A DNA stretch of 12,632 bases from IMG/VR virus record IMGVR_UViG_2695420382_000014; one strand, 5' to 3'. A program made the translations under genes and the position numbers. Position 1 is the stretch's first letter. Every line of letters starts with the position of its first letter. The stretch is from a virus (taxonomy: Duplodnaviria; Heunggongvirae; Uroviricota; Caudoviricetes). Below are positions 1,582 to 8,718 of this stretch, in pieces. The notes under the pieces are model-generated. The model ran no database searches. It had not been told where the DNA came from and worked only from the letters and a program-made list of their open reading frames with translations.

Positions 1582-2139
1582 TCAACAATGAATTTTGAGT
1601 AATTGCTCTACAGTCATATTTTTAATTGCGCCCCGGTTAACAAGAGTCCATCCCTGTTCTTCCAGATAAAACCGGAAAGTCTCCATGGTACAGACCCGTG
1701 CGCCATCAGGAACGGTTTCGGTGAATCTGATGTTGCCGCGTTCGTCGAAGTGAACAACCAGGGTGCGGCCATCGCCTGGAATTATTTTGTCAGTGGGTGG
1801 GGTGTTATTCTGGCGCAGTTCGGCCTCCATGCGATCGAACTCAGCAATGTAGGCTTCTTTAAATGCAGCGGCTTTTTTGCCAGTGAATCCCATCACCAGG
1901 AAAACGAAGCCGTTTTTGGTGATTTGGTACATCGGGCGTTTTTCGCCTTTGGCGTCAGTGTAGGTGACGTCCTCAAAATTGAGGGCGTTAAATTCAGGTG
2001 AGCATTCAGTATTTGCGATGGCACGTAACACATTGTCGTGACGCTTGCCAAAGAACTCTGCGATCGCAATAGACGTAGTGACAGCGCGACCATTTTCGAT
2101 GGTTACGTCAGGGTGAGAAAGGGCAGGGATAGTAGCCAT
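1582..2139 (-). CDS. Rha-family phage regulatory protein (185 aa)
   Basis: N-terminal segment VTIENGRAVTTSIAIAEFFGKRHDNVLRAIAN resembles the Phage_pRha signature. Start placed at internal ATG 2137-2139 (GAGGAT upstream), because the longer track ORF to 2436 would read through a sigma70-like promoter and a hairpin plus U-run. Confidence 0.65.
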   Translation of the reverse strand: MATIPALSHPDVTIENGRAVTTSIAIAEFFGKRHDNVLRAIANTECSPEFNALNFEDVTYTDAKGEKRPMYQITKNGFVFLVMGFTGKKAAAFKEAYIAEFDRMEAELRQNNTPPTDKIIPGDGRTLVVHFDERGNIRFTETVPDGARVCTMETFRFYLEEQGWTLVNRGAIKNMTVEQLLKIHC

Positions 2140-2308
2140 GATGGCATCCTCGAGTGATAAGTTAATTAACTCACCACCGAGGTTTTCCACGACCATAAGG
2201 GTGGTGTGACGTACAGGGGTGGAAATACCGGTCACTCGAGAACCCGGCCAGTCTTGCGACTGCCCTGCACATCCCACCATAATTTGAATGGAGCTGTGCA
2301 TTACGCAT

Positions 2309-2331
2309 AAAAAAACCGCTTCAGCGCGGCT
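2309..2331 (-). terminator. Weak intrinsic-terminator-like hairpin plus U7 run in the Rha leader (minus strand)
   Basis: Minus-strand RNA ...AGCCGCGCUGAAGCGG UUUUUUU: CCGC/GCGG stem 2316-2329 followed by the A-run 2309-2315 on the plus strand (U-run on minus). Stem is short (4-6 bp). Confidence 0.3.
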
Positions 2332-2391
2332 ATGCGCTCGAGTAACGTTCGGGTTTCCACGCCCGGCACCCGTTTTATAAGGTGCAGGTGC

Positions 2392-2420
2392 ACTATAATT
2401 CCACCCGTTCTGGTTTTCAA
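2392..2420 (-). promoter_or_regulatory. Sigma70-like promoter candidate reading leftward toward Rha
   Basis: Minus strand -35 TTGAAA (plus coords 2415-2420), 17-nt spacer, -10 TATAGT (2392-2397). A perfect TATAAT also lies on the plus strand at 2394-2399. Confidence 0.4.
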
Positions 2421-2458
2421 TAGCTACATTCAACATTTTCTCTCACCTTTCATCACCG

Positions 2459-2625
2459 AAGTGAATTTTGTTGATGCGGTGCCTGGTGCCTCCAGGTGAC
2501 GTTAACCAGTTAACAATTAACGCCGGATACAGGGAAACCCATAACCACCCGATACGGGGGAACTAATCGCTTTTTAACTGTGCCGCGTGCGCTGAGCCGC
2601 ATTCACCGCATCACAAAATTCACTT
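2459..2625. repeat. Pair of about 22-bp inverted repeats flanking a roughly 122-bp spacer upstream of the Rha promoter
   Basis: 2459-2481 AAGTGAATTTTGTTGATGCGGTG versus 2604-2625 CACCGCATCACAAAATTCACTT, whose reverse complement matches with one indel. The spacer contains GTTAAC x2 and a CCTGG-N5-CCAGG palindrome. Confidence 0.6.
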
Positions 2626-2867
2626 TAAAAAGGGCGGACATCAGCCAGCAATGAAACTGATGCCGCCAAAGGTACCAATCAACATGGAGTGTTGTGGCGT
2701 GGTTGTCACTTAAGCGTATGGTCAACCTGACAACCCGGTGTCCTCAACGGGGAAGGAATAACTCCGCCATACTTACCGCCGCGTCATTTCGCGTTGTGTG
2801 CCTGCTTTTAACCACGTCAGGCGAGGTGGTATCCTTCTTATCCCGAATAACCAAGAAGGAAATCTAT

Positions 2868-3842: not shown

Positions 3843-4133
3843 TTAACTGTTTTTGCCTGGATACTGTCTTCGAGAATGCACAATATTTACTACTTCTATG
3901 CTTGATGCTGTTACTCGGTAAAGGATGATGTAGTTAGGATGAGTTACAATTTCACGAAGACCAAGAACTCGCTCGCTTGGAGGATACAGGTAAGGATGCT
4001 CTGTGAGCGGCAAAACGGATGTTTCAATTCGAATTTTCATTCTGCGTGCTGCCGCGGGATTTTCTTTAGCTATGTAGGCTACGATCTGGCGCAAATCATC
4101 ACGAGCAGATGGTAGCCATAAAACGGGTAACAT
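3843..4133 (-). CDS. parE: ParE/RelE-family type II toxin (96 aa)
   Basis: Matches the ParE/RelE pattern by eye (ARDDLRQIVAYIAKENPAAARRM...GLREIV..NYIILYRV...IEVVNIVHSRRQ). Start codon overlaps the upstream small ORF's stop (TAATG). Confidence 0.75.
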   Translation of the reverse strand: MLPVLWLPSARDDLRQIVAYIAKENPAAARRMKIRIETSVLPLTEHPYLYPPSERVLGLREIVTHPNYIILYRVTASSIEVVNIVHSRRQYPGKNS

Positions 4134-4327
4134 TATTCACCTCTGTGAGTTGCAGCAGCAATTTGGGCAATAATTTGTTCCATTTCCGCCATTACCTCAT
4201 CATGCGGAATCGCCGGGCGGGGATCCGCGAGGCTTGCTGCTACTTTGGCCCGCAGCCATTCGTTGTAACTATTTTCTTGCTCAACTGTCTCAAATTCTGA
4301 AACCATTGGGGAAAGGACTGTACTCAT
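4133..4327 (-). CDS. Small acidic antitoxin candidate (64 aa), PaaA2-like
   Basis: Immediately upstream of and coupled to the ParE-like gene; GAGGAG Shine-Dalgarno; small acidic protein. The PaaA2 assignment rests on operon architecture recalled from the E. coli O157 PaaR2-PaaA2-ParE2 system, not on a recognised motif. Confidence 0.6.
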   Translation of the reverse strand: MSTVLSPMVSEFETVEQENSYNEWLRAKVAASLADPRPAIPHDEVMAEMEQIIAQIAAATHRGE

Positions 4328-4346: not shown

Positions 4347-4847
4347 TTAGGCGCGACGGCCTTTTTGTGCAGCTAACCACCGCGCAACCGTACGATCCAT
4401 TGATTCTTTTTTATCTTTCATCTCCTGAAGCATGTGTTCTTGATCTTCTTTCGGAAAAGCTCTGAACGTATGGATTAAATCTCGTTCCATCGGCTCTACG
4501 GCAAACGGTAGTTCATCCTCTGTTTGTTCTGTGTCTGCTGGTAATGCGACTATGTTATCTTGCTGTGGTTCTCGACAATACATCCTTGCAATTTGCAGCA
4601 AATCTACCATGTCTGGCCTGATTGACTCAGGGGGAACTTTCAGTAAGCCAGCAAACTTTAGAACAGCCTCAAGGTTTAGTGGGGTTTGACCATTTAGGTA
4701 GTGACTTACCGCCCCTTGTGTTGAAAACCCCATAATTTCCGCCGCACGTTCCTGAGTCAATCCCAACTGAGATTTCTTTGCCATCCAGATTTCTTTCAGT
4801 CTTCTGGCGGCGTTGAGGTCGGTGTCTGACAATGATTTTCTTTTCAT
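4347..4847 (-). CDS. XRE-family HTH repressor (cI-like, RacR/PaaR2-like), 166 aa
   Basis: HTH_XRE motif LGLTQERAAEIMGFSTQGAVSHYLNG; divergent from a Cro-like gene; operator palindromes in the intergenic region. Start chosen at ATG 4845-4847 (MKRKSL...); the track start at 4877 is GTG. Confidence 0.8.
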   Translation of the reverse strand: MKRKSLSDTDLNAARRLKEIWMAKKSQLGLTQERAAEIMGFSTQGAVSHYLNGQTPLNLEAVLKFAGLLKVPPESIRPDMVDLLQIARMYCREPQQDNIVALPADTEQTEDELPFAVEPMERDLIHTFRAFPKEDQEHMLQEMKDKKESMDRTVARWLAAQKGRRA

Positions 4848-4857
4848 ACATCCAATT

Positions 4858-4924
4858 CTAATAAGATTGCTAATCACTTTGAAATAGCATCACTATTTAC
4901 TTTTAAAAATAACAGTGCTATTAA
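4858..4924. promoter_or_regulatory. OR-like divergent promoter/operator region between repressor and cro-like gene
   Basis: Operators ATAGCatcACTAT (4884-4896) and ATAACagtGCTAT (4909-4921), centres 25 bp apart. Candidate rightward promoter -35 TTTACT 4896-4901 and -10 TATTAA 4919-4924. Candidate leftward promoter -35 TTTCAA (4879-4884) and -10 TATTAG (4858-4863), giving a near-leaderless repressor mRNA. Confidence 0.45.
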
Positions 4925-4958
4925 TTATGCATTGGTAACACATCACATAGGGCGGATT

Positions 4959-5222
4959 ATGAATCTTGGAGAATATTTGCATCATTTTCATATAACCCAG
5001 AGTTCATTTGCTGAGATTGTTGGCGCATCCCAAGGGATGGTCAGCCACGTTATAACGGGGCGTGCAAAACTTACAGGAGAAAAAATATTACGTTGGTGTG
5101 AAGCAACGGGATGGGTGGTGACCCCACATGAGATTGACAGTAAAACCTACCCCAACCCAACTGACGGCTTGCCTGCTGAGTTTCAGGCTAACACACAACC
5201 ATCGGCGGGGGTTGATTCATGA
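4959..5222 (+). CDS. Cro-like HTH protein (YdaS-like), 87 aa
   Basis: Divergent from the repressor; HTH-like segment SQGMVSHVITGRAKLTGEKILRWCEATGWVVTP; ATG 4959 preceded by AGGGCGG; stop overlaps the next start (ATGA). The track start at 4932 is TTG. Confidence 0.7.
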   Translation: MNLGEYLHHFHITQSSFAEIVGASQGMVSHVITGRAKLTGEKILRWCEATGWVVTPHEIDSKTYPNPTDGLPAEFQANTQPSAGVDS

Positions 5223-8295: not shown

Positions 8296-8718
8296 ATGGC
8301 AAAAGTATTTACACAGGAAGAGCGGGAAAAAATTAAGGGGCAGGTTGTTGAACTCGTACGCCAGAGTGGGCGCGAGACGTTACGACAACTGGAAGCTAAA
8401 ACCGGGGCGACAAGATATTTAATAAGCGTTCTCGCCAGAGAGCTGGTTGCCAGTGGGGATGTATACAACTCTGGCTACGGGTTATTCCCGTCTGAACAGG
8501 CTCGTAAGGACTGGCAAAACGCCCGCAAAAAACTCTCAAGGGCAAATCTGAAGAAACCATCTGTGGTTGATCCTGACCTTATCTGGTCATTACCAGACGG
8601 AGAAATACGCCGCTACGACAGGCGTCAAAACATAATCTGTAGCGAGTGCCGGAAGAGTGAAGTTATGCAGCGTGTACCGGCTTTCTATCAGGGTGATTTT
8701 CAGGAGGCGGTACTGTGA
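8296..8718 (+). CDS. Hypothetical protein (140 aa): winged-helix-like N-terminus plus CxxC-containing tail
   Basis: ATG 8296 after a GGGGG run; the last 41 codons (8596-8718) form the first copy of a 192-bp tandem duplication. Confidence 0.55.
   Translation: MAKVFTQEEREKIKGQVVELVRQSGRETLRQLEAKTGATRYLISVLARELVASGDVYNSGYGLFPSEQARKDWQNARKKLSRANLKKPSVVDPDLIWSLPDGEIRRYDRRQNIICSECRKSEVMQRVPAFYQGDFQEAVL

Follow-up and report, generated by a model that had tools for sequence, protein, structure and literature searches.

The immI operon of phages P1 and P7 has the order a1 b1, c4 RNA, a2 b2, icd and ant, and its two-box target occurs twice, once upstream and once over the ribosome-binding site (RBS) of a gene leading to antirepressor synthesis. 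In Gifsy-1, the isrK promoter yields the small RNA IsrK, and read-through transcription yields a translationally silent orf45-anrP mRNA (Hershko-Shalev et al. 2016, PMC4825925). In this mRNA, the central segment of IsrK is paired with the 3' part of orf45, IsrK supplied in trans opens the structure, and translation of orf45 has been shown; a processed RNA 3' of IsrK, STnc1160, was likened by the authors to CI of P4, and IsrK to seqA (PMC4825925). Both RNAs are highly transcribed in Gifsy-1 lysogens, and Hfq binding and the activation of downstream translation in trans by IsrK are known only from the Gifsy-1 experiments (PMC4825925). For P4, the summary of Forti 1999 given in PMC10111431 describes eta as a translated and functional gene whose start lies 5' of the constitutive promoter; only transcripts from the upstream promoter serve for its translation, which in turn prevents termination. 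The same 2023 paper reports that the Rfam models C4 and isrK match relatives of CI and seqA inside genes of the "Bro network", with Phage_ASH among the listed domains (PMC10111431); hence, this kind of system is already known. In this study, we analyzed a 12,632-nucleotide (nt) stretch of a tailed virus (IMG/VR record IMGVR_UViG_2695420382_000014, hereafter the window) and in particular the region preceding its rha gene, where a long open reading frame (ORF), annotated as one protein, runs through a promoter and a terminator.

We conclude that positions 2139-2448 of the window probably form an RNA immunity switch of the P4/P1 type that heads the antirepressor-like gene rha in the early-left (dicB) operon of a Qin-like prophage and is overlaid by an eta-like long ORF. 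The switch is of the type represented by seqA-CI-seqC in P4, IsrK-STnc1160-anrP in Gifsy-1 and c4 in P1, and the copy in the window has its own specificity loop. All coordinates are those of the window, and the module lies on its minus strand. Relatives were collected from viral contigs with a search pattern placed in the 3' stem of the C4-type RNA, independently of ORF calls, which gave 93 distinct regions. These regions contain 27 loop variants, which served for RNA pairing. Column conservation was judged in 35 distinct close relatives, the open frame in 67 relatives sharing the internal-start motif, and the presence of the through-ORF in 91 distinct relatives.

At the core of the system is a C4/CI-type RNA, located 3' of the terminator and 5' of ATG 2139. 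It would be the actual regulator, and the earlier note on this sequence had overlooked it together with its target over the Shine-Dalgarno sequence (SD) of ATG 2139. A full-length match to the Rfam C4 model (RF01695, clan CL00128) extends from 2284 to 2197 (70.9 bits vs a gathering score of 45, model positions 1-87). In its minimum-energy fold, two hairpins are enclosed by a long stem (z = -3.5 compared with shuffled sequence). The loop of the second hairpin is the specificity loop GUUCUCGAGUGA, which pairs with 12 nt at the SD, UCACUCGAGGAU, and with 9 nt in IsrK, UUACUCGAG. A second element, the conserved box UUUCCAC (2225-2219), is likewise complementary to two sites, GUGGAAA in IsrK (2360-2354) and the downstream GUGGAAAA (2190-2183). 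We scored loop-to-site pairing as contiguous base pairs in cognate and non-cognate combinations, as whole molecules unfold when duplex energies are calculated (z = -1.9 for the whole C4-type RNA with IsrK and -4.1 with the RBS region). Across the 27 distinct loops, a loop formed on average 10.1 contiguous pairs with its own RBS site vs 5.8 with non-cognate sites, and 7.9 with its own IsrK site vs 5.5. The loop is thus complementary to an upstream site and to a downstream site at the RBS, as in C4, and all of them covary between immunity types. The second box also differs between the window type and the P4 type in all three places jointly, P4 having GUGAGAA, UUCUCAC and GUGAGAA. Joint changes at three sites of this kind are the hallmark of a network of RNAs that sets immunity specificity. 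When the read-through leader (2385-2110) is folded, its minimum-energy structure has both IsrK boxes paired with the C4 loop and UUUCCAC, reproducing the IsrK:C4 helix named structure A in the Gifsy-1 paper (PMC4825925).

The upstream partner in this network is predicted to be IsrK. The isrK model (RF01394) matches the minus strand over its full length, from 2385 to 2309 (61.2 bits vs a gathering score of 50, E = 2e-11, model positions 1-77); the match starts 7 nt past the -10 element, and the U run forms its end. IsrK, with 77 nt, would for this reason be the short RNA that the earlier note had proposed at about 75 nt. Both elements on which that proposal was built, a promoter TTGAAA-17-TATAGT inside the annotated ORF and a hairpin followed by seven U, were confirmed. 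By themselves, consensus scans for such sites are not above chance: four promoter-like sites were found vs 2.7 +/- 1.7 expected, and four terminator-like sites vs 1.7 +/- 1.4 expected. The full-length isrK match and the conservation in relatives, in which the columns TTGA of the -35 and TAnAnT of the -10 element are invariant and the flanking columns variable, lift these two sites above chance. Hairpin 1 of IsrK shows compensatory changes at 7 of its 10 predicted pairs. The terminator stems vary by lineage with pairing kept (CCGCGC/GCGG, GACGCG/CGCGUC and CACGC/GCGUG); here we used single-sequence folds, a MAFFT/RNAalifold consensus being unusable with lineages out of register. The candidate IsrK has the setting of its namesakes, with what looks like its own sigma-70 promoter directly 5' and an intrinsic terminator at its 3' end, followed by a C4/CI-like RNA and then an antirepressor-like gene, and its middle is complementary to the C4-type RNA. 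Inside IsrK, the Rfam model c4-a1b1 matched only weakly (2346-2398, 24.8 bits), below the threshold of 46.7. The TATAAT that the earlier note had seen on the opposite strand is present at 2394-2399 but incidental: as a divergent promoter it was rejected, since it has no -35 element and is not conserved (TACACT in mEp460 and ST64B). This plus-strand TATAAT is the mirror image of the minus-strand TATAGT.

The gene that these RNAs would regulate starts at ATG 2139, which, on comparative evidence, is a genuine and conserved internal start. It is preceded by the SD GAGGA (2151-2147), the deduced MATIPALSHPD aligns with MATTLTPSHPEF of P4, and clear codon periodicity sets in from 2139 onward. The earlier note had correctly taken this ATG, with its SD, as the true start of the gene, and we found it to be homologous to the starts of P4 kil and Gifsy-1 anrP; its statement that the Rha domain begins right there was nearly so, but the Pfam domain itself begins 20 residues later (aa 120 of the long ORF). 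A further in-frame AUG, M53 of the long ORF, lies in the 5' end of the C4-type RNA and is nearly invariant among relatives; the frame from ATG 2280 runs into Rha without a stop and would give a 232-aa form. A separate small ORF whose stop overlaps the downstream start (AUGA, as in the orf45-anrP coupling) was not found in the window. An ORF of 45 codons does exist (2308-2171, minus strand), and as a homologue of Gifsy-1 orf45 it was rejected: it uses a different frame, stops 32 nt short of ATG 2139 and is not conserved, being closed after 2 codons in 25 of 35 relatives, and the true counterpart of orf45 is AUG 2280. It is probably not a gene, and the match in length coincidental.

Upstream of ATG 2139, the frame of the window opens for 101 codons. 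ATG 2436 lies 16 nt upstream of the -35 element and is therefore usable only on transcripts started further upstream. The translated extension matches Phage_ASH (PF10554; 60.4 bits vs 26, E = 2.7e-16, 105 of 107 profile positions); the long form is annotated by the Prokaryotic Genome Annotation Pipeline (PGAP) in E. coli VL7S7, and many records bear the name "ash family protein". Substitutions do not behave as in a coding sequence. Entropy at codon positions 1, 2 and 3 is 0.32, 0.34 and 0.37 in the extension, and 0.60, 0.45 and 1.06 in Rha. For codons that differ at one position only, the synonymous fraction of the extension is 0.235 in frame vs 0.277 and 0.301 out of frame, and in the Rha part 0.64 in frame vs 0.16 and 0.12 out of frame. 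With neither codon periodicity nor a synonymous excess in 2140-2436, conservation is therefore at the level of RNA. In our reading, this region would be selected as RNA and the peptide as such not at all, and the Phage_ASH family appears to be largely the shadow of the seqA/IsrK and CI/C4 RNA genes.

The frame is nevertheless kept open in most lineages, which resembles eta/kil of P4, in which immunity is overridden by translation on transcripts from an upstream promoter. Of the 67 relatives sharing the internal-start motif, 66 have no stop in the phase of ATG 2139 over at least 101 codons on its 5' side, and the two remaining frames are closed after 4-44 codons. In 64 of 66, an in-frame ATG lies 5' of the -35 element or the frame runs still further, and the long ORF reaches 383-385 aa in mEp460 and ST64B. 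The distances from the IsrK motif to the ATG in modules with a through-ORF (220, 226, 250, 253, 262, 298, 301 and 307 nt) share a single phase, indels within clades are multiples of three (3, 6, 36 and 78 nt), and those between P4 and the window measure 6, 78 and 3 nt. Nesting of the eta/kil type is thus present, the long ORF starting 5' of the constitutive promoter, spanning both RNA genes and continuing in frame into the conserved internal start. The verdict "not coding" in the earlier note holds insofar as 2140-2436 is constrained as RNA and not as protein, but it was too strong for a region in which the frame is so regularly open, with an ATG nearly always 5' of the -35 element and indels in threes within clades. 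As an observation apart, relatives L011, L013, L026, L046, L081 and L082 carry an in-frame TAG just 3' of the C4-type RNA, and their downstream start differs (MFKF... in L013, L026, L046 and L081, MMT... in L011 and L082); the through-ORF is therefore dispensable in some lineages.

Table 1. Elements of the putative RNA switch and of the overlapping reading frames (window coordinates)
Element	Position	Strand	Basis and remarks
Sigma-70 promoter TTGAAA-17-TATAGT (predicted)	2392..2420	-	Consensus scan, 10/12 matches; predicted start is G at 2385; counterpart of PisrK and P4 PLE
IsrK/seqA-type small RNA, 77 nt (predicted)	2309..2385	-	Rfam RF01394; hairpin 1, hairpin 2, linker with decoy boxes, intrinsic terminator
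IsrK terminator	2309..2331	-	Stem-loop 2331-2314, U7 at 2315-2309
Two IsrK boxes complementary to the C4-type RNA	2337..2360	-	GUGGAAA (2360-2354) and UUACUCGAG (2345-2337)
C4/CI/STnc1160-type antisense RNA (predicted)	2197..2284	-	Rfam RF01695; specificity loop GUUCUCGAGUGA at 2243-2232, conserved box UUUCCAC at 2225-2219
Downstream box GUGGAAAA	2183..2190	-	Complementary to C4 UUUCCAC; second half of a seqC/a2b2-type target; columns invariant
Target UCACUCGAGGAU	2146..2157	-	12 contiguous pairs with the C4 loop; covers SD GAGGA (2151-2147)
Predicted local hairpin, also burying the SD of ATG 2139	2148..2182	-	RNAfold, prediction only
M53 codon of the long ORF (in-frame AUG), within the 5' end of the C4-type RNA	2278..2280	-	Same codon as the first AUG of Gifsy-1 orf45
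Short Rha form, 185 aa, from ATG 2139	1582..2139	-	Phage_pRha, E = 2e-32; predicted target gene of the RNAs; by position the homologue of P4 kil and Gifsy-1 anrP
Long ORF, 284 aa (Ash + Rha)	1582..2436	-	Phage_ASH aa 14-109, Phage_pRha aa 120-204; positional analogue of P4 eta
SD-like AGGUGAG of the long ORF	2442..2448	-	Shares bases with the in-frame TGA (2445-2443) that bounds the frame on its 5' side

P4 matches the same two Rfam families in the same order, with isrK over seqA (8615-8692 of our record L003) and C4 over CI (8420-8507); the same pair in this order is also present in mEp460, ST64B and E. coli VL7S7. P4 shares with the window a -10 element TATAGT at the aligned place, a homologous internal start GAGGnUGCCAUCAUGGCUAC giving MAT..SHP, the kil start aligning base for base with GAGGAUGCCAUCAUGGCUAC of the window, a long ORF from upstream of the constitutive promoter (Eta matches Phage_ASH at aa 37-161), and mutual complementarity of the loop, the upstream site and the downstream site. 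Unlike the window, P4 has a 78-nt insertion in the C4-type region, the loop UCCUGUGAA and the box GUGAGAA, and its downstream product is the 65-aa Kil instead of a Rha-domain protein. In the satellite P4, the late promoter PLL serves as the upstream promoter, whereas the window would use the dicB-operon promoter of a lambdoid prophage. In the P4-like satellites L007, L028, L048 and L108 (extract positions 59-680), the RNA module is traversed by an open frame of about 207 codons, which a 1-nt shorter spacer puts out of phase with the conserved ATGGCUAC start.

The isrK-STnc1160/orf45-anrP-isrJ module of Gifsy-1 has a low sequence identity to that of the window and the same plan: a constitutive promoter, an IsrK terminator with partial read-through, a C4/CI-like RNA downstream (processed in Gifsy-1) whose pairing with the middle of IsrK occurs in cis, and an antirepressor-like downstream gene. 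Both modules also have an AUG within the 5' end of the C4-type RNA. In Gifsy-1, this AUG opens the separate 45-codon orf45 (MVGRMGEPKG...). Owing to a 4-nt gap, orf45 is shifted out of the anrP frame and terminates in an AUGA that overlaps the first codon of anrP; 5' of that codon, the anrP frame itself is closed by stops. In the window there is no such shift, AUG 2280 is in frame with Rha and the frame extends to ATG 2436. Gifsy-1 orf45 (L125 34076-34349, minus strand) is a frame-shifted remnant of the Ash/Eta reading frame. Upstream of the Gifsy-1 module lies antQ, and near that of the window lie a DicF-like RNA and dicB. P1/P7 immI shares with the window the antisense RNA family RF01695 and the doubled two-box target; a homologue of icd was not seen in the window, though no search aimed at it was made. 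The earlier note had compared the short RNA with lambda oop, which likewise is a short, constitutive and terminated phage RNA of about 77 nt. However, oop is a true antisense RNA to the convergent cII mRNA, whereas in the window no gene overlaps on the opposite strand and the partners lie on the same strand; seqA/CI of P4, c4 of P1 and IsrK of Gifsy-1 fit instead.

By analogy with these homologous systems, from which we take the processing of the C4-type RNA, the direction of the IsrK effect and the role of long-ORF translation, the switch could work as follows. The constitutive promoter would produce IsrK, mostly ending at its own terminator, and read-through transcripts would carry the C4/CI-type RNA, whose loop and UUUCCAC box would pair with UCACUCGAGGAU and GUGGAAAA. 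This pairing would mask the SD of ATG 2139 and leave Rha untranslated in the lysogen. IsrK, which holds copies of both boxes, would lock the read-through leader in cis, and as a free short RNA it would compete for the C4-type element, the net effect in trans in Gifsy-1 being that translation is on. The long ORF from ATG 2436 would be kept open across both RNA genes like eta of P4. When transcription comes from the upstream DicA-repressed promoter, ribosomes on the long ORF would prevent folding of the terminator and of the C4 structure, and expression would thereby be carried through to Rha and dicB. An extension of this scheme, which we put forward only tentatively, is that the three nested in-frame starts are each usable in a different RNA state, namely ATG 2436 on the upstream operon transcript, ATG 2280 on the read-through leader opened by IsrK, and ATG 2139 once its SD is freed from the C4 loop. 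The long frame would then be kept as a track for ribosomes that erase the terminator and the antisense RNA, and not for its peptide.

Several observations weigh against an RNA switch with an eta-like ORF. The fold of IsrK on its own is no better than that of shuffled sequence (z = -1.1). No amino-acid-level purifying selection, as expected of Phage_ASH as a protein domain, was detected in 2140-2436. Overall, only 8 of 15 length classes are in phase, and the through-ORF is absent in 14 of 91 distinct relatives, Gifsy-1 included. A column-resampling null in the close clade leaves frame 0 open in 74% per sequence; together with the exceptions among relatives, this makes the open frame weaker evidence of coding than it looks. 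The visible terminator in the window is intrinsic, whereas the P4 terminator under CI control is reportedly Rho-dependent. Finally, AnrP of Gifsy-1 has an ORF6N domain where the window has Rha, and orf45 is coupled as a separate ORF, so that details from Gifsy-1 may not transfer.

One alternative is that the RNA switch is the same and the long ORF without function. The conserved RNAs would then happen to be free of stops in this frame, gene callers would extend rha to the first upstream ATG, and the products would be IsrK, the C4-type RNA and the 185-aa Rha, which is essentially the view of the earlier note with the C4 RNA added. The missing codon periodicity and synonymous excess, the resampling result, the in-frame stops in Gifsy-1 and about 13 other distinct relatives, and the position of ATG 2436 upstream of a promoter active in lysogens all agree with this explanation. 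We nevertheless consider it unlikely, as the frame is also open in the variable DNA that precedes IsrK, with an in-frame ATG there in 64 of 66 relatives, the frame continues for more than 100 further codons in some of them (mEp460, 383 aa), indels within clades are of 3, 6, 36 and 78 nt, and P4 eta is reported as translated and functional in the account given by PMC10111431.

The opposite extreme would be an ordinary two-domain protein of 284 aa in which the Ash domain has a function of its own and the matches to RNA families are secondary. Its basis is the Phage_ASH match along nearly the whole profile and the "ash family protein" naming by PGAP and in many records. Yet the in-frame synonymous fraction in the extension is below that of both other frames, variation is confined to the RNA loops and target boxes and covaries as base pairs, a conserved promoter and terminator lie inside the ORF, and frame-shifted versions exist among relatives; we therefore regard such a protein as highly improbable. 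A promoter-proximal attenuator of a simple type, or an antisense RNA like oop, acting without a partner RNA, would explain the promoter, the hairpin and the U run, but nothing is encoded opposite IsrK (the plus-strand ORF 2332-2499 has no family match), and the adjacent C4-type RNA with its three-way complementarity forms a pairing network in trans or in cis. There is hardly any probability left for that explanation.

The same-strand neighbors of the RNA switch are genes for a DicA-like helix-turn-helix protein, a PaaA2-ParE pair and YdfA (DUF1391), a DicF-like RNA and an STnc100-like hairpin, then ash-rha, DicB, YdfD (DUF1482) and YdfE. Together they make up the early operon of a Qin-like enterobacterial prophage, the early-left (dicB) operon, and the upstream promoter is likely the repressor-controlled promoter of this operon. 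The DicF-like small RNA (2632-2680, minus strand; 38.8 bits vs a threshold of 48, E = 1e-6) has its own hairpin and U run (terminator 2664-2637), and its position upstream of dicB (1383-1571) is that of dicF in the dicB operon of Qin. Between it and the long ORF lies a 154-nt long hairpin (2467-2620, minus strand) with a predicted energy of -57 kcal/mol and a weak STnc100 match (31.6 bits vs 47); a stretch about 76% identical to it occurs, unannotated, between tRNA genes and terB in phage P7 (L126 1201-1316). The genes for the PaaA2 antitoxin and the ParE toxin (around 3843-4327, minus strand; L127 696-1180) are located between the DicA-like repressor gene and the ydfA-like gene. L127, which encodes an identical ash-rha protein, has the dicB-DUF1482 pair twice in tandem (3866-4242 and 4677-5053). 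A tRNA scan found none.

Overall, the locus is not a new kind of system but a further copy of a known phage RNA switch, and its value is chiefly for annotation and interpretation. Part of this 1.3-kb region was matched in 4686 of 5426 complete E. coli genomes, and an "ash family / Rha family" gene is present in thousands of genomes of E. coli and Shigella; its first 100 codons would really consist of two regulatory RNA genes, a promoter and a terminator. The regulated start is placed at 2139, and possibly also at 2280, and Phage_ASH would be explained as largely an RNA shadow. Each prophage is further predicted to possess an immunity specificity of its own, which a loop of about 10 nt would determine. 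If the three nested starts are indeed used in different RNA states, the eta trick of P4 would extend to ordinary prophages and couple an immunity RNA to expression of the cell-division inhibitor DicB, and Phage_ASH in Pfam would be a protein family created by the conservation of RNA.

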